Positions 12,103-23,679 of a DNA stretch of 24,000 bases are shown in pieces. This stretch comes from Actinomycetota bacterium (GTDB lineage Bacteria; Actinomycetota; Acidimicrobiia; Acidimicrobiales; Poriferisodalaceae), in the NCBI GenBank assembly GCA_039818945.1, contig JBCBSZ010000001.1, positions 1 to 24,000 of the forward strand, given 5' to 3'. The notes beneath the pieces are model-generated. The model worked only from the letters and a program-made list of their open reading frames with translations, was not told where the DNA came from and did no database searches. The translations under genes were made by a program, and so were the position numbers. Positions within the stretch are counted from its first letter, which is position 1. Each line of letters opens with the position of its first letter.

Positions 12103-13344
12103 GTGAGCGCCTGCGGCTCCTGCGGCCACCCGCTCCGCGACGACGATGCGTTCTGCTCGAGCTGTGGGGCTCGCCGGGAGCCGGCGGTCGTCAGCCTGAC
12201 CGGGGGCGGTGAGACCGCGGTCGAGCAGCGGACGGTGGTCGGGGCTCGCCGTCGCAACCTGGTGCCGCTCGTCGCCGTCGTCGCGCTCCTCGCCGTCGCC
12301 GGCCTCGTGGCGCTGTCGCGGTCGACCGACGAGCCGGAGGCCGAGGCGTCGCCGACCACGACGATCGCCTCGCCACCGACCGAACCACCAACCACCGAGC
12401 CCGCACCGCCGCCGCCCGACCCGGTCGGCGACGACGAGGACCTCGTGCTCGACGGTCTCGACCAGCTCGGCCTGGGACCGAACCGGCTCGCGGTGCGCTC
12501 CGGCGAGGTCGTGTTCACCTACGACCCCGACGCCGGCTCGCTGCTCGCCCGCCACGACCTCACCCGATCGAGCGGCGGCGACATCTGGTTCGGCGACGAC
12601 GAGCTGATCATGCGGAGCCAGGGTCAGACCGGACCGGGCATGTCGGTCCTCGAGCTCGACACCGGCCGCTTCCGCAACTACGTCGGCATCAACTTCATCG
12701 TCAGCGACGCCTCCGCCGACCTGGTGGTGGGCCAGGAGTTCGGTCGCTTCTTCGGTGGTGGACGATGGGCGGTCGTCGACGTGGACGGGTTCTCGATCGA
12801 CCGGGTCGAGATCGCCGGCACACCCGCCTTCACGTTCCTCGCCGCGGCCGGTGACGGCGTGCTGCTCGACGAGGGCGGCCAGATCGTGCACCTCCGCGAC
12901 GGCGAGCGCACCGCCCTCGGCTCCGGCACCCTCATCTCGTGGTCCGAAGAAGCCGCCCTCATCGGCACCTGCGACGCCGAGCTCGACTGCCGGACCCGAT
13001 CGGTCGCCTTCGACGGCAGCGACATCGTCGAGGGGCCCGGGCTGACCCTGCCGCCGCTCTCGCTCGGTGGTGAGGTGCGGTGGCTCTCGCCCGACGGTCG
13101 GATCCTCGCCGCGGTCGACCCCGCCGCTCGCCTGCTCGACCTGATCGACGTCGAGACCGGGGAGTCCCTCCCCCACGAGCTGGGCCGGACCGGGACCCAC
13201 TCGCTGCTCTGGACCCCGGACTCGACCAGGGTGATCGTGGCCGACGACGACGCCGTCGCCGTCGTCGACGTCGCCTCGGGCGCCGTGGTCAGCGCCCCCG
13301 CATCGGCGAGGGTGGACCAGGTCGGCTTCGTCGACCCGACCTGA
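12103..13344 (+). CDS. Zinc-ribbon / single-TM / PD40-type beta-propeller membrane protein, function unknown
   Basis: N-terminal CGSCGHPL-x9-CSSCG zinc ribbon. TM helix LVPLVAVVALLAVAGLVAL. Pro/Thr linker PPTEPPTTEPAPPPPDP. C-terminal repeats of the WLSPDGRILAAV / LLWTPDSTRVIVAD (TolB/PD40-like) type. GTG start, with GGAGG 11 nt upstream. Confidence 0.6.
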   Translation: MSACGSCGHPLRDDDAFCSSCGARREPAVVSLTGGGETAVEQRTVVGARRRNLVPLVAVVALLAVAGLVALSRSTDEPEAEASPTTTIASPPTEPPTTEPAPPPPDPVGDDEDLVLDGLDQLGLGPNRLAVRSGEVVFTYDPDAGSLLARHDLTRSSGGDIWFGDDELIMRSQGQTGPGMSVLELDTGRFRNYVGINFIVSDASADLVVGQEFGRFFGGGRWAVVDVDGFSIDRVEIAGTPAFTFLAAAGDGVLLDEGGQIVHLRDGERTALGSGTLISWSEEAALIGTCDAELDCRTRSVAFDGSDIVEGPGLTLPPLSLGGEVRWLSPDGRILAAVDPAARLLDLIDVETGESLPHELGRTGTHSLLWTPDSTRVIVADDDAVAVVDVASGAVVSAPASARVDQVGFVDPT

Positions 13345-13348
13345 CGGG

Positions 13349-13855
13349 TCACTCCGGGCGCTGCTTCGCCGCCTCCGGCGAGCGGGTCCACATGATCGCC
13401 GAGTCGAAGCTGAGCTTGTCGTCCGGCTCGAACTCGATGACGACCCGCGCCGGGCTGTCGAGGAAGCGCTGGAAGGTCGTCGCGGCCACCTCGTCGTCGG
13501 GCCGCAGACGGCGGGCGAACTCCGGGTAGAACCAGTCCTTCACGTCACGACCGGAGTGCACGGTGCACGACCCCTTGTAGGTGACGGTCTTGCCCGAGCC
13601 GAGCGGCGTCCCGAAGCTGCTGATGCACACCGAGGCCCGTGGGAACCGGCGGATCGCCGAGATCCGGGCGCGCCGCTCAGCGGCCGTGAGCCAGAGCTTC
13701 CCCTCCTTCGGGAGGTACGACATGATCACGCCGAACGCCTCGCCGGCCCGGTTCGTCCACATGAAGGTGCACTCGTTCTGGACGGCGAGGAGCTGCTCCT
13801 CGAGCTCGTCGCTCAGCGCGCACTCGGTCAGGTCCTCGTAGTTGTCGTCCGCCAT
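13349..13855 (-). CDS. Pyridoxamine 5'-phosphate oxidase (PPOX)-like split-barrel flavoprotein family protein
   Basis: 168 aa with good GC3. The pattern LSDELEEQLL...CTFMWTNRAGEAFGVIMSY...GKLWLTAAERRARISAIRRFPRASVCIS resembles PPOX/FMN- or F420-binding split-barrel proteins. It lies 22 nt downstream of the aldolase gene on the same strand. Confidence 0.5.
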   Translation of the reverse strand: MADDNYEDLTECALSDELEEQLLAVQNECTFMWTNRAGEAFGVIMSYLPKEGKLWLTAAERRARISAIRRFPRASVCISSFGTPLGSGKTVTYKGSCTVHSGRDVKDWFYPEFARRLRPDDEVAATTFQRFLDSPARVVIEFEPDDKLSFDSAIMWTRSPEAAKQRPE

Positions 13856-13877
13856 GGCGGCACCCTACGCGAGGCCC

Positions 13878-14750
13878 TCAGCAGACTCGGCGGGCCTCCG
13901 AGGTCGCCGACACCAGCATGTCGAACCGCTCCACACCGACCGACGAGAGACGGCCTCGTCGGTCTGGCGCGCCGATCGAGTCGCCCCAGATCGCGCGGCC
14001 CGCCATGAACCCGGAGCAGCCGTTCGCACAGGCCACCTCGGTCTGGCGGACGAACAGCTCGAAGGGGGCGCCCCACGACAGCACCGCCCAGGGTTGCCCG
14101 GTGACCTCGTCGACCCGACGACAGGCGTCGTCCCACCGCTCGGGATGGTCGGCCGCGGACGGGAAGGGCATCTTGATCACGTCGGGCCCGAGCGCCCCGA
14201 TGCGCTCGGCGGAGGCGACGATCGTGCGCTCGCGATCCTCGACGTCGACGACCTCGTACGGCACCGGCTCGACGAAGAGCGGGAGACCGACCTCGCCGCA
14301 CCCGTCGACGACCGAGCGGATCAGGTCGTCCTGGGCGGCCGTGACCTCGCCACGGTCGGGGCGGTACAGCACGAGCAGCTTGGCCGCGGACGCACCGACC
14401 TCGGCAGCACGGCGTGGGCTCCAGCCCTCGAGGAGTTGGTTGGTGACGACCCCGGCATCACCGAGGTACCCCTGCGCCTCGAGCGCGCACAGGGTGCCGA
14501 CCCCCGCGGGGACCAGCCCGGCCCGGAGGAGCTGATCGATGGACAGCTCGGGGTCGAGCATCACCGCCGAGGGGCGGTCGCCGAACACCTCGACGACATC
14601 GATCTTGAAGCGCACGAGCTCCTCGACCGACACGCCGTCGGGATCGTCGCGGTCGAACTCGACGCGCAACGAGTCGCGGTGGTCGATCGCCAGGACGGTC
14701 AGCCGGCCGTCGTCGTCGACGAGCGGCCGGAGCGCCTCGCGCCCGATCAC
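13878..14750 (-). CDS. Class I aldolase of the LacD/DUF2090 type; likely 5-dehydro-2-deoxyphosphogluconate (DKGP) aldolase of the inositol pathway
   Basis: LTVLAIDHRDSL near the N-terminus and GPDVIKMPFP (candidate Schiff-base Lys) resemble tagatose-bisphosphate/YihT-type class I aldolases and the DUF2090 domain fused to IolC in other bacteria. It sits directly after iolC-iolB. The GTG start is 8 nt after the iolB stop. Confidence 0.6.
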   Translation of the reverse strand: MIGREALRPLVDDDGRLTVLAIDHRDSLRVEFDRDDPDGVSVEELVRFKIDVVEVFGDRPSAVMLDPELSIDQLLRAGLVPAGVGTLCALEAQGYLGDAGVVTNQLLEGWSPRRAAEVGASAAKLLVLYRPDRGEVTAAQDDLIRSVVDGCGEVGLPLFVEPVPYEVVDVEDRERTIVASAERIGALGPDVIKMPFPSAADHPERWDDACRRVDEVTGQPWAVLSWGAPFELFVRQTEVACANGCSGFMAGRAIWGDSIGAPDRRGRLSSVGVERFDMLVSATSEARRVC

Positions 14751-14757
14751 CTCCGCA

Positions 14758-15558
14758 TCACGGGGCGACCTTCGGCAGCTCCCAGCCGCGGGCCTCCCAG
14801 TCGTCCTCGATCCACGTGTACGCCGAGTGGAAGCACGGCGGCGTGGCCCGCTCGTCGCCGATCAGCTCGCCGGCGAGGTAGTTGAGGAAGAACATGTGCG
14901 AACCCGGCGCACCGACGCTGGAGTGGTAGCCCTTCGGGACGGTGACGACGTCGCCGTCGTGGGCGACGTGGGTCTCGTCGAAGGGCTCGTCGACGCGCCA
15001 GTTCCGGTGGAGGCAGAAGCCATCGGACGGGTCGGTGCGGAAGTAGTAGGTCTCCTCGAGGTACGGCGACCCGTCGAAGCCATCGTGGCAGTGCGGCGGC
15101 CAGCCCGACCACATGCCCCGGGGCACGTAGACCTCGTAGATGATGAGGCGCTCGGCCGGCAGGGGCGACGCGAGGGCGTGGACGACCTGGCGGCGGGCCA
15201 TGCCGCCGCCGCGGATCTCGGTCCGCATCTCGTCCGGCGTGAACACCCGGACCTCGTAGCGGCCCTCGGCGGGTGCCGACCCGACGGCGCACTCGCCCCC
15301 GCCCTCGATGGTGAGCGACGCCCCGGGCGGTGCGTAGAGGATGTTCGGCATCTCATCGAACACCGACGAGCGGGACAGCTCGACGTCGCGACCGTCGACG
15401 GTCGCGGTGATCGAGCCGGACAGCGGCACCACGGCCACCTCCTGCCCGGCCTGACCGACGTCGGTCGCCGAGGTGGGACGGTGCACGGCGAAGGACAGGA
15501 ACCGCCAGCCCTCGGTCTCGGGCGTGAGGCTCACGAGTGGTCGTTCGCGTTCGGTCAT
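14758..15558 (-). CDS. iolB: 5-deoxy-glucuronate isomerase
   Basis: 266-aa cupin. MWSGWPPHCHDG...YLEETYYF...GYHSSVGAPGSHMFFLNYLAG matches IolB hallmarks. ATGA overlap with the iolC stop. Confidence 0.85.
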   Translation of the reverse strand: MTERERPLVSLTPETEGWRFLSFAVHRPTSATDVGQAGQEVAVVPLSGSITATVDGRDVELSRSSVFDEMPNILYAPPGASLTIEGGGECAVGSAPAEGRYEVRVFTPDEMRTEIRGGGMARRQVVHALASPLPAERLIIYEVYVPRGMWSGWPPHCHDGFDGSPYLEETYYFRTDPSDGFCLHRNWRVDEPFDETHVAHDGDVVTVPKGYHSSVGAPGSHMFFLNYLAGELIGDERATPPCFHSAYTWIEDDWEARGWELPKVAP

Positions 15559-16529
15559 GGTGTCTCCTCAACACGGACGGGTGGCACGCCGGTGGCGAGC
15601 ATGGTGGCGATCTCGTCGAGCGTCGGCATGTCGTCGCTGCACAGCAGCCGCGAGGCGACGATCGCCCCGGCCGCGTTGGCCTCGGTCATCATCTGCTCGG
15701 GCTCGGCACCGGTCAGCAGGCCGTGCACGAGGCTGCCGCCGAAGGCGTCGCCGGCGCCGAGGCCGCAGACGACCTCGACCGGCGTGGGTGGCACCACGAC
15801 CGAACGACCGTCGGCGCTGACGGCCATGACGCCGTCGCCGCCCATCTTCACGATGGCGAGCTCGATGCCACGGTCGATCATCCTGGCGGCGGCCTGCTCC
15901 GGGTCGGCGGTGCCGACCGCCACCTCGCACTCCTCCCGGTTGCCGACCGCGACGGTGACGTGGTCGAGCAGCGGGCCGACCGCAGCGCCGGCCTCGGCGG
16001 CCGACGACCAGAACATCGGGCGGTAGTCGAGGTCGAGCACGGTGTGGCTGCGGCGAGCGCGCTCGGCCAGCACGGCGCGGGTCGTGGTGGCCGAGGGCTC
16101 GAACGCCATGCGGGAGCCCGGGATCCACAGCACCGGCACCGAACGCACGAGGTCGAGGTCGACGTCGTCGACGGTCAGGTGCTCGTCGGGGGCGGAGGGC
16201 CGCCGGTAGAACCAGATCGACGGCTCGGCCGGAGGATCGAGCTCGGCGAACACCACCGGCGTGGGCAGGTCGGGGTGGCTGGACACGTACGAGGCGTCGA
16301 CGCCGAAGCGCTCGAGCGCGGCGCGCACGAACCCGCCGAAGGGATCGTCGCCGACCTTGGTCACGAGCGCTGCCCGGTGGCCGAGCCGGGCTGCGGCGAC
16401 CGCCACGTTGGTGGCCGTGCCGCCGATGGCCGAGCGGAACGTCGAGACCTGCGCGAGCGGCCGGTCGATCTGCTCCGGGTACAGGTCGACGCTCACCCGA
16501 CCCATCGCGAGCAGCTCGATGTCGCCCAC
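15555..16529 (-). CDS. iolC: 5-dehydro-2-deoxygluconokinase (PfkB family)
   Basis: AMGRVSVDLYPEQ, GGTATNVAVAAARLG and GAGDAFGGSLVHGLL (PfkB signatures). I chose the GTG start at 16529, with GGAGG 8 nt upstream. The ORF-track start at 16604 is a TTG that is part of a TTGACA -35 box, and that reading would translate through a 22-bp palindrome. ATG 16505 is also possible. Confidence 0.85.
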   Translation of the reverse strand: MGDIELLAMGRVSVDLYPEQIDRPLAQVSTFRSAIGGTATNVAVAAARLGHRAALVTKVGDDPFGGFVRAALERFGVDASYVSSHPDLPTPVVFAELDPPAEPSIWFYRRPSAPDEHLTVDDVDLDLVRSVPVLWIPGSRMAFEPSATTTRAVLAERARRSHTVLDLDYRPMFWSSAAEAGAAVGPLLDHVTVAVGNREECEVAVGTADPEQAAARMIDRGIELAIVKMGGDGVMAVSADGRSVVVPPTPVEVVCGLGAGDAFGGSLVHGLLTGAEPEQMMTEANAAGAIVASRLLCSDDMPTLDEIATMLATGVPPVRVEETP

Positions 16530-16549
16530 GGCCAGCCCCTCCCCGGTCT

Positions 16550-16571
16550 CGACTTGGAGCGCTCCAAGTCG
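16550..16571. promoter_or_regulatory. Perfect 22-bp palindrome, candidate repressor operator (LacI-family-like) at the predicted +1 of iolC
   Basis: CGACTTGGAGC|GCTCCAAGTCG with 22/22 symmetry. The central GAGCGCTC is identical to the core of the ideal symmetric lac operator. It begins 5-6 nt after the -10 hexamer and ends 20 nt before the GTG at 16529. Confidence 0.5.
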
Positions 16572-16576
16572 CTCAG

Positions 16577-16604
16577 ACCCTACGCCACCACACGGACCTG
16601 TCAA
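16577..16604 (-). promoter_or_regulatory. Sigma-70/HrdB-type promoter of the iolC-iolB-aldolase-PPOX unit
   Basis: The minus strand reads TTGACA (16604-16599), a 16-nt spacer, then TAGGGT (16582-16577, fitting TAnnnT). It lies between a terminator-like hairpin and the iolC start. Confidence 0.45.
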
Positions 16605-16645
16605 GCGGTCGGGATCGCTCGTGAACAGGCCGAACGGGGGCGCGA

Positions 16646-16684
16646 CGCCGCGGGCCGGGCCGGCGCGATGCCCGGCCCGCGGCG
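16646..16684 (-). terminator. GC-rich hairpin, candidate intrinsic terminator after the secreted-protein gene
   Basis: A 14-bp perfect stem (16646-16659 pairs with 16671-16684) with an 11-nt loop, starting 10 nt after the stop at 16695. There is no clear U-tract, which I understand to be common in high-GC actinobacteria (from memory). Confidence 0.4.
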
Positions 16685-16694
16685 CTGCACGGCA

Positions 16695-18191
16695 TCACGG
16701 CAGGTCGTAGCCCACCACAGCCGTGAACCAGACCCACTCGGCGTCGTGGCCACCCGCTCCGGTGACCAGGCACTTCCAGTCGGCCCGGGCGCCGACCACA
16801 CCGAAGTGGCTGCAGTCCGGAGCGGCCTCGAGCTCGTCGAGGGTCGGTTCCAGGATGACGTTGGTGAAGCGGAGGGTCGTCCCGCAGGCGTCGCCGCCGT
16901 ACTCCATGATCGAGTGCTCCGGGAACCCGCCGAGCAGGCCCGTGGTGTCGAGGAAGGACCCGCCGCACAGCGGCGTGTCGCGCTCCCGGGCCGTGAGGCC
17001 GACCTCGGGCACCGGCTCACCGTACGGCACCGACACCGTGGCGGTGTACAGCTCGTCGGTGATCGAGACCGAGTCGCCGTCCTCCAGCTTCCACGGGCTG
17101 AACTCGCCGTCGTAGTGCCAGATGCGGTGGCTCCGGAGTCCCCAGGCCAGTTCGATCTCGCCCTTGCCGCCCAGCGTCGTGGGATCGCCGTCCTCGAGGA
17201 TGCTGAACTTCAGGACCGCGACGTCGACCTCGACGTCGGGCGCCTCGCCGCTGCGGAAGCTTCCCGTCGCGTGCTCGGCGAAGCCCTCGGCGTCGGTCGC
17301 CGAGACGACGACGTGGTAGGTCGTGTCCGGCTCGAGGTCGCTGACGGTCCCCCGCAGCGTCCCGCCGCTGTCACTGGTGACGACGAACGGTTGGTCGGCG
17401 GGGAGGAAGGGGTGGCCGCCGATCGTGCCCGGCTCCTGGGGCGAGACCCGCACCTCGACGTCGACGGCACCGTCGGTCTCCACCTCGAGCTCGACGGTCT
17501 CGAAGGTCGGACCGGCGTAGACGTGGCCCGCGCCGATGCAGCCGAAGTAGCAGGGGCTGCCCTCGGCCGTGAGGTCGGCCGCCCGGTCGGGCAGGGTGAA
17601 GTTCGTCGTGGCGAACATGTGGTTGCCCTGCTGGTCGATGACGAGCAGCGCGAGGAAGTAGGACTCGCCGTACTCGAGCCCGTCGACCTCACCGGTCCAC
17701 GTGTGACCCGCGGACGAGCTGTGCGCGTTCGGCCAGCCGTTCATGATCGGCACGCCGTCGACCCAGTTCGGCTCCTCGTACGCGACCCACAACTGGGCGT
17801 GGGTAGCGACCGTGGTCTCGACGGCGAGCTCGAACGACGGGAACCGAGGGTGGGGATGGATGAGCGCCTCGACGATGCAGTCGCGCAGGCAGCCGAACTC
17901 GTTGGGCGTCCAGTCGTCGACCGGAGCGTCCGGCTCCGGCATCGCGTGCTCCATGACGAGTGGCTCCGGGACGTACGGTTCGAGCTCGGCCAGCGGCTCC
18001 TCGCGTTGGATCGGGCCGAACCTCCCGGTGGGGCCGGCGCGGCCGTCGTCTCGCAGCACGTCGGCCGAGGCCGCGGTGCTGCCGAGCAGCAGCGCGACGA
18101 ACAGGACGAGGGCGCCGACCCGGCGGCGCGGGCGGGACGGCCCACGCGTCCGGAGCTCGACGTGGTCGGGGGGTGATGTGGTGGTTCGCAT
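16695..18191 (-). CDS. Secreted protein of unknown function with two tandem FN3-like modules and a Cys-containing C-terminal domain
   Basis: Signal peptide MRTTT...RRRVGALVLFVALLLGSTAASA|DV. FN3-like strands (LEPDTTYHVVVSATDAEG; LEYGESYFLALLVIDQQGN). GC3 is high. Start is ATG 18191; the upstream GTGs at 18278/18287 are possible but their codons have weaker GC3. Confidence 0.6.
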   Translation of the reverse strand: MRTTTSPPDHVELRTRGPSRPRRRVGALVLFVALLLGSTAASADVLRDDGRAGPTGRFGPIQREEPLAELEPYVPEPLVMEHAMPEPDAPVDDWTPNEFGCLRDCIVEALIHPHPRFPSFELAVETTVATHAQLWVAYEEPNWVDGVPIMNGWPNAHSSSAGHTWTGEVDGLEYGESYFLALLVIDQQGNHMFATTNFTLPDRAADLTAEGSPCYFGCIGAGHVYAGPTFETVELEVETDGAVDVEVRVSPQEPGTIGGHPFLPADQPFVVTSDSGGTLRGTVSDLEPDTTYHVVVSATDAEGFAEHATGSFRSGEAPDVEVDVAVLKFSILEDGDPTTLGGKGEIELAWGLRSHRIWHYDGEFSPWKLEDGDSVSITDELYTATVSVPYGEPVPEVGLTARERDTPLCGGSFLDTTGLLGGFPEHSIMEYGGDACGTTLRFTNVILEPTLDELEAAPDCSHFGVVGARADWKCLVTGAGGHDAEWVWFTAVVGYDLP

Positions 18192-18504
18192 GCTCCGAGC
18201 AGACCGCGACGTGCCCCGGCGAGTCCTGGCGACGGCGTGGTGATCCCCTGACCACCTCCGACCTGCGGCCGACGCCACCGAGATCACCTCGTGGCCACGC
18301 CACGGTCATGACTCGATCGCCGATCTGCGGTCGCCTGGTGGCATGACCACGTACCAACGCACCTCCACGTCCGATTCCGGCTCCGCTCGTCGGGTCAGGT
18401 TCCGTGCCGAGTGGGTGAGCATCGACGGTGCTCGCCCCCGGCTGCGGTGGACCCGCCTCGACCAACGGTCCGGCTGACCCACCGCATCCAGATCCGCCGG
18501 TGCT

Positions 18505-18558
18505 CCGTCCCCGCCCCCCGGACACGCAGTGCCCACGCCCCCGGTCGGGCGGGGACGG
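18505..18558 (-). terminator. Long GC hairpin downstream of the regulator gene (candidate terminator)
   Basis: CCGTCCCCGCCC (18505-18516) pairs perfectly with GGGCGGGGACGG (18547-18558), a 12-bp stem. An inner CCGG/CCGG 4-bp extension is possible. It lies 25 nt after the stop at 18584. No U-tract. Confidence 0.35.
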
Positions 18559-18583
18559 CATCGGCTCCAGCCCGCGGCAGGCC

Positions 18584-21298
18584 TCAGCGAGCGGCCCGGG
18601 CGATCCCGGCGTAGCGCCGGTACCCGAGCTCGTCGTACTCGGCGGCGATGCCCTCGAGGCTGGCCCCGGCGGCGAGCGCCTCGACGTGACGCACCCGCAG
18701 CGGCCACAGCTGCCCCTCGACGGGGGCGACGGCCTCGGTCAAGCGACCGAGCAGCGAGCCGGCGGCGTTCGCGCCGCGAGCGAAGGTCGCCGCAGCGAAC
18801 AGCAGATCACCCTCCGCGATGCGTGCGCCCCCGGCTCGAGCCTCCTCGGCGACCGGGGAGAGCAGCGGCACCACCTCGTCGTGACGGCCGAGCACGTCGA
18901 GCAGCTCGGCGATGCCCGCGGCCAGCCGCCACCGGCCCACGCCGATCGTCGAGGGCAGCGCGGCCAGGCCGCGCTCGACGCCGTCGTGCGCAGCGGTCGA
19001 CGAACCCCGGGCGACCTCGGACCGGGCGAGGAGCACCTCGGCGAGGCCGAGGAAGTGGGGGAAGACGTCCCGACGACTCGACGCGACGATCGCCCGGATC
19101 AGCTCGCGGGCCGTTCGTGGACGACCGGCCTCGAGCTCGATCTCGGCCCCGATCGCCGGCAGCAACCCGAGGCGCGACCGGCGACCGGTCGGCAGGTGCG
19201 TGCAGACCAACGACGCGGCATCGGCGAGCGCACCGCGCTGGAGCATCGTCCCCACCTTGGTCGTGAGCAGCGCGTCGAGGCTCTCGGCCCGCCACGGCGC
19301 GGGGACGACGGTGCGGGCCAGCGCCATCGCCTCGTCGATCAGCACCTCGGCCTCGGCGATGCGACCCATGCCGAGGAGCGCCACGGCCAGGGAGCCGAGG
19401 ATCTCGACCCGGCTGACGCCGTCGGCCCCGAGCAGCGAGCGGGCCTCCGCCTCGACCTCCACGTACCGGCCGCTCGTGGCGAGCAGGCCGAGCCGTCGGG
19501 CCGCCAGGGCGTGACCGACCGGATCGCTGCGCCGCGCGCCCTCCTCCAACGCATCGAGCGCCTCGGCGTGCCGGGCCCGGTAGGTGAAGGCGATCGTCGA
19601 CCGACGGCGGAGGGCCAGCGAGGCGAGCAACGGGTCGAGGCGATCGACGTCGAGGCCGGCGAGCAGCCGCTCGGCCCGCTGCCAGTGGTTGCGCCGCAGC
19701 GAGAGCTCGGCGAGCACCACGGCGGCGCCCGGTTCCTCGTCGAGGTCGACGGCCTCGGCCAGCAGCTCGGCGTCGCCGAAGTCGCCGGCCACGAGCGCCA
19801 TCAGCGCGTGGTCGAGGAGCGTGCGGTGCTCGATGCGACCGGCGTGCTCCGGACCCCACGCGACGATCCGGGCCACCGCCCAGGGCGTGGGCGGATCGGC
19901 GAGCAGCGCGGAGGTGAGCTCCCCTCGCACGGCGCGCTGGCGGAGCGCACCGGTCGCGTCGAGCACGGCCTCCTCGAGCACCGGCTCGGCCAGGCCGACG
20001 TCGGGATCCGCACCCCCACCGCCGACGGCGACGAGACCGGCGTCATCGAGCTCGTGCAGCGCCGACTCGTCGACGAGTCCGGACAGGACCGAGAGTCGGG
20101 TCGGGCCGAGGAGGGCCATGCGCACCGCAGCCGACCGAGCCTCGTCGCCGAGCCCGTCGGGCGGCCAGTCGACCGAGCAGCTCGAGACCGGACGGCCCGC
20201 CAGCTGCCAGACCCCCTCGATCCGAGCCAGCGCGCCGGCGCGCCGGGACGCCTCGACGATGTCGCGGAGGTCGGCGGGGCGACCCCGACTGGCCCGGGCC
20301 AGGGCGACGACGGTCTCGTCGTCGATCGGGCCCTGCAACGCTCGATAGAGCAGCACGTCGACGTCGACATCGTCGAGGGGGCCGAGCTCGACCGTGTGCA
20401 GGACACCGCTGCGGGCGAGGCTGTCGAAGTCCCCGTCCGCTCCCCCGGTCGGCCGGCCGGTCACGAGCACGAAGATCGCTCCCGAGGTCACCAACGAGCC
20501 GAGCACGGCGGCGCTGAGCGGGTCGACGAGCGGTGCGTCATCGACGAGCACGAGCGCACGCCGACCGTCGCGACGACCGTCGAGCACCTCCCTGGCCCGC
20601 CGGAACAGCTCGGCGCGGGCGAGGTCCTCGGCGAGCTGCTCGGTGCCGAGCCCTTCTGCGGGCAACAGGTCGGCGATCGCGGACGTCGGGATCTCGCTCC
20701 GACCGGGAAGGCCCCGTACCCGCCACACGGGGGCGCCGGAGCGGGCGAGGCGTGCGAGGCACTCCTCGGCCAGGCGGGTGGCGCCGACGCCCGCAGGTCC
20801 CTCGATCACGACGCCGCCGACGCGCTCCGCCTCGGCGGCCTTCAGCACCGCGGCGAGCTCCTCCCGCCGTCCGGTGAACGGCCAGGCGACGTCGACCGGG
20901 GTCGCTGGCGCCGGTGCGACCGGGACCGTCGTCGGCTGCGCAGGCCCCTCGTCGACCACCGTGACGTCGGCCACGAACCGGTAGCCACGCCCGTGGACGG
21001 TGCGGATGACCGCCTGTGCGTCGCCGTCGTCGCCGAGCGCACGCCGGGCGAACTTGATCCGGGTCGTCAGCGTCGATTCGCCGACGAACCGATCGCCCCA
21101 CAGCTCGTCGAGCAGCTCCTCCTTCGGCACGACCCGGTCGCGATGACGGACGAGCAGCTCGATGACCGAGAACACGAGCGGCTGCACCTCGACCAGCTGA
21201 CCTCCGCGCCGCAACTCGGCGCGATCGGTATCGAGCTCGCAGTCGGTGAATCGGAGCCTCACGAGCCCATTCTGCTGGGCGCCGGGGCGACGGCACAC
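18584..21298 (-). CDS. Large transcriptional regulator: N-terminal OmpR/PhoB-type winged helix, AAA_16/STAND-like NTPase domain (degenerate P-loop), C-terminal helical/TPR-like repeats
   Basis: wHTH: LVFSVIELLVRHRDRVVPKEELLDELWGDRF...TLTTRIKFARRAL...IRTVHGRGYRFV. P-loop region VVIEGPAGVGATRL. Walker-B-like ALVLVDDAPLVD. It is followed by a long Ala/Leu/Arg-rich helical region. Start is GTG 21298 or GTG 21262. Confidence 0.8.
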   Translation of the reverse strand: MCRRPGAQQNGLVRLRFTDCELDTDRAELRRGGQLVEVQPLVFSVIELLVRHRDRVVPKEELLDELWGDRFVGESTLTTRIKFARRALGDDGDAQAVIRTVHGRGYRFVADVTVVDEGPAQPTTVPVAPAPATPVDVAWPFTGRREELAAVLKAAEAERVGGVVIEGPAGVGATRLAEECLARLARSGAPVWRVRGLPGRSEIPTSAIADLLPAEGLGTEQLAEDLARAELFRRAREVLDGRRDGRRALVLVDDAPLVDPLSAAVLGSLVTSGAIFVLVTGRPTGGADGDFDSLARSGVLHTVELGPLDDVDVDVLLYRALQGPIDDETVVALARASRGRPADLRDIVEASRRAGALARIEGVWQLAGRPVSSCSVDWPPDGLGDEARSAAVRMALLGPTRLSVLSGLVDESALHELDDAGLVAVGGGGADPDVGLAEPVLEEAVLDATGALRQRAVRGELTSALLADPPTPWAVARIVAWGPEHAGRIEHRTLLDHALMALVAGDFGDAELLAEAVDLDEEPGAAVVLAELSLRRNHWQRAERLLAGLDVDRLDPLLASLALRRRSTIAFTYRARHAEALDALEEGARRSDPVGHALAARRLGLLATSGRYVEVEAEARSLLGADGVSRVEILGSLAVALLGMGRIAEAEVLIDEAMALARTVVPAPWRAESLDALLTTKVGTMLQRGALADAASLVCTHLPTGRRSRLGLLPAIGAEIELEAGRPRTARELIRAIVASSRRDVFPHFLGLAEVLLARSEVARGSSTAAHDGVERGLAALPSTIGVGRWRLAAGIAELLDVLGRHDEVVPLLSPVAEEARAGGARIAEGDLLFAAATFARGANAAGSLLGRLTEAVAPVEGQLWPLRVRHVEALAAGASLEGIAAEYDELGYRRYAGIARAAR

Positions 21299-21348
21299 CC
21301 GATTCGCGTGCGGCGCGTGCCCGACCGACCGCGTGGAAGGATCGCACC

Positions 21349-21762
21349 GTGAACCCCGCCGACCTCGAGATGATCCGAGCGGATGCCGCCCACTTCGGCG
21401 AGCTGGGACCGGCGCTCGCCGAGGAGTTCTACGCCAGCCTGTTCGAGCTGAGCCCCTCCAGCCGCGAGCTCTTCCCCGACGATCTGGCCGCCCAGCAGCG
21501 CAAGCTCATGGACGAGCTCAGCGCGCTCGTCGACCTCGCTGCGCACGTCGGCGACGGCAGAGGTGCGGAGCTCGAGCGGCGGGCGGCCGACCTCGGCCGG
21601 CGCCACGTCGACTACGGCACGGAGCCCGACCACTACAGCCTGGTCGGCGAGGCGTTGCTGCTCGCCCTCGAGGTGACCGTCCCCGGCTGGACCGAGGAGC
21701 ATCGGCCCGCGTGGGCCCGGCTCTACCGAGCCGTCGCCGACGCGATGCTCCACGCCTCCTGA
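21349..21762 (+). CDS. Single-domain globin (Hmp/Vitreoscilla-haemoglobin-like)
   Basis: 137 aa. It aligns by eye to the Hmp globin domain: EEFYASLF (Tyr B10), ELFPDD (Phe CD1), AAQQRKL (Gln E7), LGRRHVDYGTEPDHYSLVGEALLLAL (proximal His F8 and the HY..VG..LL motif). GTG start with GGAAGGA 7 nt upstream. Confidence 0.8.
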   Translation: MNPADLEMIRADAAHFGELGPALAEEFYASLFELSPSSRELFPDDLAAQQRKLMDELSALVDLAAHVGDGRGAELERRAADLGRRHVDYGTEPDHYSLVGEALLLALEVTVPGWTEEHRPAWARLYRAVADAMLHAS

Positions 21763-21795: not shown

Positions 21796-23679
21796 TCACC
21801 ACCCGATCCGCTGCTCGGTCTTGCCCTTGTCGAGCTCGGCGCGGGCGTCGAGGACCTCCTGGCGGTTCGACACCTCGGGCACCCCGACCTCCCAGAAGCT
21901 GCCACCCTCGGTCCACGTGTACGGATCGACCTGCAGCGCGATGACGGAGGTCCGGTCCGCGGCTCGGGCCCGCTCGACGGCCCCTTCGAGCTCGGCGATC
22001 GAGCTGACGGTCTCGGCGGCGCATCCCATCGAGGCGGCGTGGGCGGCGAAGTCGACGGCGAAGGGCTCCACGCCGAGGCGGCAGTCGCTGATCAGGTTGT
22101 TGAACGGCACTCCACCCTGGTTGACCTGCAGCCGGTTGATCACCGCGAAGCCGCCGTTGTCGCAGACGATGACGATCATCTTGTGACCGCTCAGCACCGA
22201 GCTGTACAGGTCGGAGTTCATCATCAGGTACGACCCGTCGCCGACGAAGACGAACACCTCGCCGTCGCGCTCGGCCCCGCCGCCCGGGCCGTAGGCCATC
22301 GCCGCACCCCACCCACCGGCGGTCTCGTAACCCATGCACGAGTAGCCGTACTCGCAGTCGAAGGTGCCCACGCCTCGCGACCACCAGCCGTTGTTGACCT
22401 CGCCGGGGAACCCACCCGCCGCGGCGAGGCACACGTCGCCCTCGGCCGCCGTGCGGTTCACCGCGGCCACGACCTGCGCGTACGTGACCGTGTCGTCGGT
22501 CGGGGCGCCGATCGTGTCGAGGTAGGCGCAGAAGCCGGCTTTCTCCTCGGCCGCACGCTGCATCCACGCCGTCGGAGCCCTCCAGCCGCTCAGCACTTCC
22601 GACAGCACGCCGAGGGTCTCGCGGGCGTCACCGACGACGGGCACCGAACGGTGCTTGACGGCGTCGAAGCGGGTCGTGTTGATGCCGATGACGACGGTGT
22701 CGTCGTTCTTGAAGATCGTCCACGAGCCGGTCGTGAAGTCCTGGAGCCGACAGCCGATCGCCACGACCACGTCGGCTTCGGCGGCGAGGCTGTTGGCCGC
22801 CTCGCAGCCGGTGACACCGATCGGGCCCACGTAGGCCGGGTCGTCACCGACGAGGCAGGACTTGCCGGCGACGGTCTCGACGACCGGGATGTGGTGGCGG
22901 GCGGCGAACTCGCTCAGCTCGGCCTCGGCGACCGAGTAGTGCACCCCGCCGCCGGCGATGATCAGGGGGCGCCGGGCCGACCGGAGGTGCTCGGTCGCGT
23001 CGGCGATCTCGCTGACGTCGGCCCGGGGCCGCGGCGGTCGGTGCATGACCGGCTCGAAGAAGCGCTCGGGGTAGTCGAACGCGGTGGCCTGGACGTCCTG
23101 GGGTAGGCCGATGAACGCCGGCCCGCGGGTGGACGGGTCGATCATCGTGGCGAGGGCCGCCGGCAGCGACTGCACGACCTGCGCCGGGTGGGTGATGCGA
23201 TCCCAGAACCTCGTCACCGGCTTGAACGCGTCGTTGACCGTCGTCGACGGCTCACCGAAGTTCTCGACCTGCTGGAGGACCGGGTCGGGGATGCGCGAGG
23301 CGAACGTGTCGCCCGAGAACAGCAGGAGCGGCAGCCGGTTCGACGACGCCACCGCCGCCGCGGTGACCATGTTCGTGGCGCCCGGGCCGACCGACGACGT
23401 CGCCGCCATGACCTGCCGGCCCTTCACCGCCTTGTTGTAGGCGACGGCGGCGAGGGCCATGCCCTGCTCGTTCTGACCCCGCCAGGTCGGGAGCTCGCCC
23501 TGCACCTCCTCGAGCGCGTGGCCGAGGCAGGTCACGTTGCCGTGGCCGAAGATGCCGAAGACGCCGGGGAACATCGGGGCCTCGGCGCCGTCGGGCAGGA
23601 TCGTGCGCTGGGCGATCATCCAGCGGACGATCGCCTGCGCGGTGGTGAGCCGCACGGTGGCTCGGGTGGCGTCGGTCAT
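21796..23679 (-). CDS. iolD: 3D-(3,5/4)-trihydroxycyclohexane-1,2-dione acylhydrolase (decyclizing), ThDP-dependent
   Basis: 627 aa. N-terminus VRLTTAQAIVRWMIAQR...FGIFGHGNV and the ThDP-binding region GDGSYLMMNSDLYSSV...CDNGGFAVINRLQ are typical of IolD/acetolactate-synthase-like enzymes. It sits in iol context. Confidence 0.9.
   Translation of the reverse strand: MTDATRATVRLTTAQAIVRWMIAQRTILPDGAEAPMFPGVFGIFGHGNVTCLGHALEEVQGELPTWRGQNEQGMALAAVAYNKAVKGRQVMAATSSVGPGATNMVTAAAVASSNRLPLLLFSGDTFASRIPDPVLQQVENFGEPSTTVNDAFKPVTRFWDRITHPAQVVQSLPAALATMIDPSTRGPAFIGLPQDVQATAFDYPERFFEPVMHRPPRPRADVSEIADATEHLRSARRPLIIAGGGVHYSVAEAELSEFAARHHIPVVETVAGKSCLVGDDPAYVGPIGVTGCEAANSLAAEADVVVAIGCRLQDFTTGSWTIFKNDDTVVIGINTTRFDAVKHRSVPVVGDARETLGVLSEVLSGWRAPTAWMQRAAEEKAGFCAYLDTIGAPTDDTVTYAQVVAAVNRTAAEGDVCLAAAGGFPGEVNNGWWSRGVGTFDCEYGYSCMGYETAGGWGAAMAYGPGGGAERDGEVFVFVGDGSYLMMNSDLYSSVLSGHKMIVIVCDNGGFAVINRLQVNQGGVPFNNLISDCRLGVEPFAVDFAAHAASMGCAAETVSSIAELEGAVERARAADRTSVIALQVDPYTWTEGGSFWEVGVPEVSNRQEVLDARAELDKGKTEQRIGW

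Follow-up and report, generated by a model that had tools for sequence, protein, structure and literature searches.

The gene iolC of this uncultured actinobacterial lineage raises two questions: what acts on the perfect palindrome in front of it, and where its translation begins. An earlier note on the window (the whole stretch of 24,000 nucleotides analysed here) had described a textbook promoter overlapped by a lacO-like palindrome, and had placed the start codon downstream of the one given by the open reading frame list. Sequence comparisons now make it highly probable that a LacI-family repressor of the IolR type uses the palindrome as its operator to control the iolC-iolB-aldolase-flavoprotein operon.

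Promoter elements of iolC

When the sequence was re-read, the elements listed for the iolC promoter were all recovered in place on the minus strand (Table 1), in the order TTGACA, N16, TAGGGT, CTGAG and palindrome. The -35 hexamer agrees with its consensus at 6/6 positions and the -10 hexamer with TATAAT at 3/6, the two being separated by 16 nt. A consensus scan called no promoter anywhere in positions 13000-19000, because its -10 rule is based on E. coli; the hexamers were judged by their conservation and their counts over the genome. The actinobacterial -10 consensus is TANNNT or TAG-purine-purine-T, and TAGGGT suits it. The description as a textbook promoter is apt by actinobacterial standards only.

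The arrangement TTGACA-N16-TAGRRT occurs twice in the genome, each time as an iol promoter bearing the operator. The second belongs to the iolE-like operon, where TTGACA-N16-TAGGGT is again followed by the operator, and the genome holds no third promoter of this kind. In an alignment of four iol promoters that bear the operator, taken from three genomes, neither CTTGACAG nor GC-N-TAG-N-GT varies, the -10 positions reading TAGGGT, TAGTGT, TAGGGT and TAGAGT.

Table 1. Coordinates in the window of the iolC promoter, the predicted operator and the genes of the transcription unit
Feature	Position	Strand	Remarks
-35 hexamer TTGACA of the iolC promoter	16599..16604	-	Read from the sequence; its TTG is the spurious start of the longest ORF
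-10 hexamer TAGGGT of the iolC promoter	16577..16582	-	16 nt past the -35 hexamer
22-bp perfect palindrome, predicted operator of a LacI-family IolR-type repressor	16550..16571	.	22/22 self-complementary
Shine-Dalgarno sequence GGAGG	16538..16542	-	8 nt ahead of the start codon
iolC start codon GTG	16527..16529	-	Profile, gene call, sister genome
iolC, 5-dehydro-2-deoxygluconokinase, 324 aa	15555..16529	-	PF00294; TIGR04382 347.9 bits, cutoff 300
iolB, 5-deoxy-glucuronate isomerase	14758..15558	-	PF04962; TIGR04378 199.6 bits, just below cutoff 205
DeoC/LacD-type class I aldolase, probable DKGP aldolase	13878..14750	-	PF01791, PF09863; NF009498 162.8 bits, under cutoff
PNPOx-like flavoprotein, last gene of the transcription unit	13349..13855	-	Weak PF01243 match
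GC-rich stem-loop, 15-bp perfect stem, 9-nt loop	16646..16684	-	Just past the stop of the upstream 530-aa gene

Recurrence of the predicted operator

The palindrome reads CGACTTGGAGC|GCTCCAAGTCG from 16571 to 16550, with GC|GC at its centre, and contains the conserved operator core CTTGGAGCGCTCCAAG (16553-16568). Since 34 perfect palindromes of at least 22 bp are found in the 6.0-Mb genome (approximately 0.14 expected per 24-kb window), its length alone is rare without being unique. The decisive figure against chance is the recurrence of the motif rather than the length of the palindrome. Both the 12-bp TGGAGCGCTCCA and the 16-mer CTTGGAGCGCTCCAAG are present in exactly three copies in the genome, for approximately 0.002 copies of the 16-mer expected by our arithmetic from the base composition (72% GC). 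The genome search for further sites that the earlier note had proposed therefore gave two more copies, 17 kb away at the iolE-like/iolG/iolD operon (C1:33607-33622 and C1:33689-33704) and beside a LacI gene. All three lie in non-coding promoter DNA of one iol cluster and have the 19-mer CGACTTGGAGCGCTCCAAG in common, in the same strand orientation.

With one mismatch allowed, the genome scan gave four matches, against none for the reversed-pattern control. The fourth match (C10:102040, one mismatch, kept in G002) was regarded as a coincidence because it falls inside the coding sequence of a Crp/Fnr-family protein. Weaker matches, with two mismatches, fall in coding or low-GC regions. Close to iolC, no auxiliary operator was found at up to three mismatches.

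The palindrome could also act mainly as RNA, a hairpin formed by the first bases of the iolC transcript affecting mRNA stability or ribosome access. With a transcript start near 16570, the first 22 nt would form a 9-bp stem with a 4-nt loop, and the pair GGTCT/AGACC noted earlier on either side of the palindrome is indeed present, AGACC (16549-16545) pairing with GGTCT (16579-16575) over a 3-nt bulge and extending the stem to -22.5 kcal/mol. This flanking pair was, however, not found at the other two genomic sites or in the sister genome G001, and the fold energies are ordinary relative to shuffled sequences (z = -0.42 and -0.87); on these two grounds the hairpin was rejected as the main function. 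In addition, in the promoter of the regulator gene itself the site precedes the -10 and would not be transcribed, and the distance from operator to start codon ranges from approximately 20 to 55 nt among the iol promoters compared. We consider the RNA explanation very unlikely and retain that of a DNA operator.

Translation start and genes of the operon

The open reading frame list opens the iolC frame at TTG 16604, which was correctly recognized as part of the -35 box, and three lines of evidence support GTG 16529 as the start. Positions 2-308 of TIGR04382 align with residues 4-310 of the GTG-started IolC; a gene called independently on a Logan contig encodes exactly this 324-aa protein from the first to the last residue; and the same-genus genome G001 keeps the homologous GTG, preceded at 4 nt by GGGGAAGGGGA, while its TTGACA is in another frame and a TGA interrupts the iolC frame 66 nt upstream of the GTG, between operator and start. 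The next in-frame ATG (16505) is located inside the conserved N-terminal strand of IolC. For the annotation, the start of iolC is corrected to GTG 16529, giving a protein of 324 aa.

These results also bear on the idea that the palindrome has no function, being due to chance or a relic, and that TTG 16604 is the start codon of iolC. The open frame does extend up to that codon, and long palindromes do occur elsewhere in the genome, but the motif recurs three times within the iol cluster only and is kept in G001 and in G018, the upstream extension is stopped in G001, and both the family profile and the independent call begin at the GTG. Such a reading is hardly credible.

Downstream, the start of iolB overlaps the stop of iolC, and in the Logan contig a 168-aa gene, the flavoprotein, is called straight after the aldolase. 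The scores of IolC, IolD and IolG exceed the NCBIfam equivalog cutoffs, those of IolB and the IolE-like protein lying just or well below. The regulated cluster also encodes an SBP and an ABC transporter. Upstream of the promoter, the stem-loop at 16646..16684 folds at -51.8 kcal/mol (z = -2.6) and looks like a terminator, which would insulate the iolC promoter; as it carries no U-run, this role is a putative one.

The LacI-family gene linked to the operator

The earlier note had found no LacI-family gene in the window and had suggested a repressor encoded elsewhere or belonging to another family. The first part holds, while the recourse to another family is not needed: a LacI-family gene (C1:33721 or 33772 to 34794) lies on the same contig, approximately 17 kb past the window. 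It is divergent from the iolE-like/ABC-transporter/iolG/iolD operon, and the two other operator copies are located in between. The protein encoded by C1:33772-34794 matches PF00356, PF13377, PF00532 and PF13407, that is, an N-terminal LacI-type HTH with an effector core resembling periplasmic binding proteins, and can be aligned over its full length with the CcpA, PurR, RbsR and LacI structures. Its hinge, NAAARSLAEQ, includes the hinge-helix Leu (AAARSLAEQ), in keeping with the CpG at the centre of the operator. The domains, the dyad with a central CpG and the copies at both regulator and predicted targets are those of a LacI/GalR-family system, as judged from sequence.

Conservation of the regulator and its site

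Among 78 homologues of the regulator, a site (at most two mismatches, within 400 bp of the homologue gene) was found upstream of 16 of the 19 with at least 39% identity and of none of the 59 more distant ones, the reversed control giving none. Every site-bearing homologue has the recognition helix GVS(R/K)(A/S)LVSLV; one further homologue (L028) has this helix with no site upstream. Regulator and motif co-occur across Actinomycetota. Next to the closest homologues lies a divergent iolE-like/SBP/ABC operon extending to iolC or iolD, and synteny was observed in Nocardia, Solirubrobacteraceae and Nanopelagicales.

Closer to the genome studied, G001 has a pair of sites at the regulator, spaced by 80 bp, and one at iolC, where the operator is TTAGAGCGCTCCAA and the promoter TTGACA-N16-TAGTGT, and the same layout is present in the same-family genome G018. 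As only 2 of 40 other genomes carry iolC and 3 a match to the motif, conservation among close kin rests on G001 and G018. The spacing of the paired sites varies from 13 to 82 bp between genomes, so that no conserved geometry for DNA looping is claimed. Between G000 and G001 the regulators are 58% identical and IolC 86%, so that the history of the regulator-operon pairing may be more complex.

That the regulators diverge far more than the enzymes could also be expected if the palindrome were the operator of another protein, either a CebR-like LacI paralogue or the 904-aa Trans_reg_C/AAA/TPR (wHTH-AAA-TPR) regulator encoded 2 kb upstream (18584-21298). Each half-site is one base away from that of the Streptomyces CebR box TGGGAGCGCTCCCA, and the second candidate is nearby. 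Against this, the remaining copies of the motif all flank the LacI gene, and the motif accompanies the LacI orthologues in widely separated lineages of actinobacteria but not the remoter homologues. The exact CebR box does not occur in the genome. Winged-helix regulators of the OmpR/SARP type bind direct repeats and not dyads, which argues against the wHTH-AAA-TPR protein. Control by another regulator is therefore unlikely, and we keep the linked LacI-family protein as the candidate repressor.

Proposed regulation, origin and significance

We infer the mode of action as follows, from binding and repression (as against control of another kind) to the point where transcription starts, the dimer and the nature of the inducer. 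A repressor dimer would bind the dyad which, since it begins 5 nt beyond the -10 of a strong TTGACA-N16-TAGGGT promoter, would span approximately +1 to +22, with its centre predicted at about +10/+11 of the transcript. Binding would stop open-complex formation or promoter escape until a metabolite of the inositol pathway occupies the sugar-binding core and the repressor is released. Through the other two identical sites, the same repressor would act on the iolE-like/ABC-transporter/iolG/iolD operon and on its own gene. Translation of iolC would proceed from GTG 16529 behind GGAGG, TTG 16604 being part of the -35 box and not a start codon. The system is a well-supported case of an ordinary sugar switch; no binding or induction experiment on this ortholog group was found in the searchable literature.

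The iolC and iolE-like promoters agree in both hexamers, in their 16-nt spacing and in 9 of the 16 bases of the spacer. A block of approximately 5 kb (a secreted protein, the wHTH-AAA-TPR regulator and a globin) separates iolC-iolB-aldolase from the cluster, and in Nocardia iolC is still within the main operon. One speculative and rather doubtful scenario is that the iolC promoter-operator is a duplicate of the iolE-like module, recruited when iolC-iolB-aldolase became separated from the cluster. If true, it would be a clean natural case of regulon repair by a copied cis-regulatory cassette, within a predicted IolR group that spans the actinobacteria and has the helix LVSLV and the box TGGAGCGCTCCA.

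Three transcription units, with approximately 20 kb of inositol genes, can be assigned by prediction to a single, named regulator of this uncultured lineage. The pair formed by the helix GVSxxLVSLV and the box TGGAGCGCTCCA is shared by Nocardia, Arthrobacter, Nanopelagicales, Solirubrobacteraceae and this lineage, and could guide regulon annotation or studies of LacI-family specificity. A near-consensus promoter that is rare in the genome, together with a tight dyad operator, could be turned into a module for inducible expression after identification of the inducer. The understanding of how LacI-type switches work is unchanged by the iolC finding.

Comparison with known systems

The IolR of B. 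subtilis belongs to the DeoR family and that of C. glutamicum to the GntR family. The task proposed here, repression of iol catabolic and transport operons, iolC promoters among them, until inositol is present, is that of the IolR of B. subtilis, C. glutamicum, Salmonella and Caulobacter, whereas the regulator family and the operator sequence are unrelated to theirs. In Caulobacter, the IolR motif is GGAA-N6-TTCC and mutation of one such motif in the iolC promoter leads to de-repression (PMC2597717). Two LacI-family proteins are, by description, alike in being tied to inositol metabolism: IolQ of B. subtilis, the repressor of the single scyllo-inositol dehydrogenase gene iolX (PMC5504672), and the inositol-responsive IpsA of C. 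glutamicum, which chiefly activates inositol synthesis (PMC3899939).

With E. coli LacI, the regulator shares its family and can be aligned over residues 2-318; it has no obvious C-terminal tetramerisation heptad. The likeness of the palindrome to lacO asserted earlier stands for the dyad, the central CpG and the 8-bp core GAGCGCTC, which is identical to that of lacO1 and of the symmetric operator AATTGTGAGCGCTCACAATT, yet it is a likeness at the family level: the half-sites agree at 6/10 positions only, and the core occurs 476 times in the genome, so that taken alone it is weak evidence. As in lacO1, the predicted operator is centred near +11 and the proposed logic is repression by occupation of the start-site region; unlike in lac, iolC has no auxiliary operators nearby at up to three mismatches, and pathway and effector differ. 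The site would work like lacO1 but is no lac operator.

By its sequence, the predicted operator is closer to the box of Streptomyces CebR, another actinobacterial LacI-family regulator (PMC4358012): the 14-bp dyad is identical to TGGGAGCGCTCCCA at 12/14 positions, including the central GGAGCGCTCC, and has T for G at position 2 of each half-site. Unlike CebR, the regulator here sits in an inositol cluster, which it would control in place of cebEFG/bglC. A literature search with GGAGCGCTCC gave CebR papers and unrelated ones only, and TTGGAGCGCTCCAA was in no paper found.

A close parallel is given by the LacI-family IolR regulogs of RegPrecise, predicted in Actinobacteria for SAV_7156 of Streptomycetaceae and AAur_1987 of Micrococcineae (Ravcheev et al. 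2014, PMC4052901). These regulogs are computational, with the effector entered as 'null' (PMC4052901), and GGAGCGCTCC was not found in the text of the study's supplement, which is without site lists. LacI-type IolR regulons in Actinobacteria are thus already predicted, and the present system differs in lineage, coming from an uncultured genome of a family known mostly from MAGs. In both, a LacI-family regulator is linked to inositol utilisation, the predicted regulon is local and autoregulated, and the predicted targets are genes of inositol transport and catabolism. The DNA-binding domains of the regulator and SAV_7156 are closely similar, with, by inspection, 48 of 82 N-terminal residues identical and the hinge ELGYRPNAAARSL-EQR in common, and the regulator's unusual recognition helix, GVSxSLVSLV, recurs in SAV_7156 as well as in AAur_1987.

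The iolC promoter and start codon

Read on the minus strand, the promoter, palindrome, GGAGG and GTG upstream of iolC lie where the earlier note had placed them, and the palindrome was confirmed as perfect. The mechanical ORF list does open the iolC frame at TTG 16604, as had been remarked. IolC family profile positions 2-308 align to residues 4-310 of the protein started at GTG 16529, an independent Logan contig gene call gives exactly the same 324-aa IolC protein, and the next in-frame ATG (16505) lies inside the conserved N-terminal strand. In the same-genus relative G001, TTGACA does not share the iolC frame, and that frame is closed by a TGA 66 nt ahead of the homologous GTG. The 25-codon extension from TTG 16604 is therefore a longest-ORF artefact, and the proposed GTG stands as the real start.

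Coordinates of the features (C1, contig of the window; unprefixed positions are in the window; L016, L041 and L112, extracted loci)
Feature	Position	Strand	Remarks
-35 hexamer TTGACA	16604-16599	minus	sequence reading
Spacer, TTGACA to TAGGGT	16 nt	minus	sequence reading
-10 hexamer TAGGGT	16582-16577	minus	sequence reading
CTGAG	between TAGGGT and palindrome	minus	sequence reading
Palindrome CGACTTGGAGC/GCTCCAAGTCG	16571-16550	minus reading	22/22 perfect
AGACC	directly past palindrome, ahead of GGAGG	minus	sequence reading
GGAGG	16542-16538	minus	then 8 nt to GTG
GTG start codon of iolC	16529	minus	sequence reading
iolC	15555-16529	minus	TIGR04382, 348 bits, cutoff 300
iolB	14758-15558	minus
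DeoC/LacD-type aldolase	13878-14750	minus
PNPOx-like gene	13349-13855	minus
530-aa gene	end at 16695		upstream of iolC; unannotated, without Pfam match
wHTH-AAA-TPR regulator	within 16695-21762		upstream of iolC; 904 aa, Trans_reg_C/AAA/TPR
iolD	21796-23679		upstream of iolC; TIGR04377, 799 bits
Operator places	16553-16568; C1:33607-33622; C1:33689-33704		genome-wide motif search
PhyH-family gene	C1 about 36500-37492 (L016:10958-13492 ORF); G001 C12:118323 (L112); Millisia brevis L041:10503-11459

The window spans bases 1-24000 of contig C1, with a G+C content of 72%. Unrelated genes (the 530-aa gene, the 904-aa regulator and a small plus-strand gene) occupy 16695-21762 between iolD and iolC, and in G001 the same iolC promoter is preceded by another gene. 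A stem-loop at 16646-16684 (minus strand; 15-bp perfect GC-rich stem, 9-nt loop), 11 nt past the stop of the 530-aa gene, has a folding energy, flanks included, of -51.8 kcal/mol (z = -2.6). It resembles a terminator lacking a U-run and would shield the iolC promoter from transcription running in from upstream.

Recurrence of the operator and of its promoter

The genome (6.0 Mb, 313 contigs) holds 34 perfect palindromes of at least 22 bp, so the length alone is uncommon, not unique, and the 8-bp core common to the palindrome and the symmetric lac operator, whose sequence was confirmed from the literature, occurs 476 times. TGGAGCGCTCCA, CTTGGAGCGCTCCAAG and the 19-mer CGACTTGGAGCGCTCCAAG are found at exactly three places, about 0.002 copies of the 16-mer being expected from base composition. 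This recurrence is the decisive fact against a chance palindrome, an explanation to which we give practically no weight. A one-mismatch 16-mer copy (CTTGGAGCGCTCCGAG) at C10:102040-102055 (L023:1501-1516), kept in the same-genus relative G002 (C350:565-580), lies inside the coding sequence of a Crp/Fnr-type regulator gene; it was rejected as an operator and is most likely a coding coincidence.

The minus-strand iolE-like operon is preceded by TTGACA-N16-TAGGGT-N13-operator, with hexamers and spacing identical to those of iolC. TTGACA is strikingly rare in the genome (126 copies on both strands), TTGACA-N16-18-TANNNT occurs 12 times and TTGACA-N16-TAGRRT twice, at these two promoters. Near-consensus promoters are thus very few in this genome, and the iol promoters are among them. 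Four promoters were aligned (PiolC of this genome and G001, PiolE-like of this genome and the same-family relative G018), and CTTGACAG, GC-N-TAG-N-GT and TT-N-GAGCGCTCCAA proved invariant in all of them. Actinobacterial -10 elements follow TANNNT or TAG-purine-purine-T, and by this rule only does the description of the promoter as "textbook" hold: TAGGGT matches TATAAT at only 3/6, and because of this a scan with the E. coli consensus did not call the iolC promoter. The transcript is predicted to start 6-8 nt past the -10, which would place the operator over about +1 to +22, with its centre near +10/+11 as in lacO1.

A LacI-family regulator and the main iol operon

Both distant copies fall in the intergenic region between the minus-strand iolE-like operon and a divergent plus-strand LacI-family gene, 17 kb off on the same contig; the earlier note had rightly allowed for a repressor gene outside the window. 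The regulator carries PF00356 and PBP-like domains, aligns over its whole length with the CcpA, PurR, RbsR and LacI structures and has retained the leucine of the hinge helix, in keeping with the operator's central CpG. At its own gene (C1:33689-33723, or L016:9689-9723; G001 C22 about 76487-76525), the operator is directly followed by a conserved TACGGT, and the start codon (GTG, or ATG in G001) comes exactly 7 nt later, so that the regulator appears to have a leaderless mRNA and an operator set between its -35 and -10. A main function of the palindrome as a 5' RNA hairpin is very unlikely, since its folding is unexceptional and, at the regulator's own promoter, the -10 comes after the site.

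The operon encodes an IolE-like TIM barrel, a sugar-binding protein, ABC transporter components, a Cgl0159-like protein, two Gfo/Idh/MocA dehydrogenases, an SDR and iolD. Its first gene (L016:8619-9566, C1:32619-33566) is only IolE-like, scoring 160 bits with TIGR04379, whose cutoff is 290. Of the dehydrogenases, one is above the IolG equivalog cutoff; one (entry L016:2439-4190) is closer to levoglucosan dehydrogenase (298 bits, below its cutoff) than to IolG. No iolA was seen in the iol cluster, whose substrate range may extend beyond myo-inositol. A PhyH-family (phytanoyl-CoA dioxygenase-like) gene recurs beside the regulator or its sites, and a one-mismatch site in G001 (C12:118323) lies between it and a divergent PEP-mutase-like gene; both may be unrecognised regulon members.

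Conservation of the regulator and its motif

Of 40 related genomes, just 2 have iolC. In G001, whose IolC is 86% identical, the gene is preceded by TTGACA-N16-TAGTGT-N13-TTAGAGCGCTCCAA and, after it, GGGGAAGGGGA-N4-GTG, and two sites 80 bp apart precede the LacI orthologue. Identity between the two genomes is 86-89% for IolC, IolB and the aldolase but just 58% for the regulator, and the regulator module may have another history than the iolCB operon. G018 has the regulator and the iolE-like gene in divergent orientation, and two sites follow the promoter of the latter (TTGACA-N16-TAGAGT).

Among GTDB representatives, homologues at 39-52% identity were found in Solirubrobacteraceae, Nocardia, Nanopelagicales, Nocardioidaceae, Arthrobacter, Millisia and Planctomonas. 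A site with no more than 2 mismatches stands in the 400 bp upstream of 16 of these 19 homologues and of none of 59 more distant ones, and a reversed control pattern gave no match. The recognition helix GVS(R/K)(A/S)LVSLV is common to all homologues that carry the site, and next to the closest of them an iolE-like/SBP/ABC operon extending to iolC or iolD is again transcribed divergently from the regulator. Binding by a regulator other than the LacI-family one could be considered, the site being identical to the Streptomyces CebR box at 12/14 positions, but with no exact CebR box in the genome and a motif that tracks the LacI-family regulator across homologues, this is improbable.

Proposed switch and comparison with known systems

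We propose that the palindrome is, with high probability, the operator of a classical LacI-type switch. A repressor dimer on the dyad just downstream of the strong promoter's -10 would block initiation, an inositol-pathway metabolite would release it, and the same repressor would also act on its own gene and on the main transport/catabolic operon. For binding, regulation sign, oligomeric state and inducer, this proposal relies on analogy with the LacI family. The observation at iolC is confirmed and its LacI-type interpretation supported.

The exact motif appears in no paper of the searchable literature. Seven non-orthologous LacI-family IolR groups are given in Ravcheev et al. 2014 (PMC4052901); among them are the regulogs of SAV_7156 (Streptomycetaceae) and AAur_1987 (Micrococcineae), for which the effector entry is 'null'. 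By inspection, SAV_7156 is identical to our regulator at 48 of 82 N-terminal residues, and SAV_7156 and AAur_1987 both share its LVSLV helix. From these 82 residues, the regulator very probably belongs to the same specificity group, and the iolC operator would be another case of an already known LacI-type switch.
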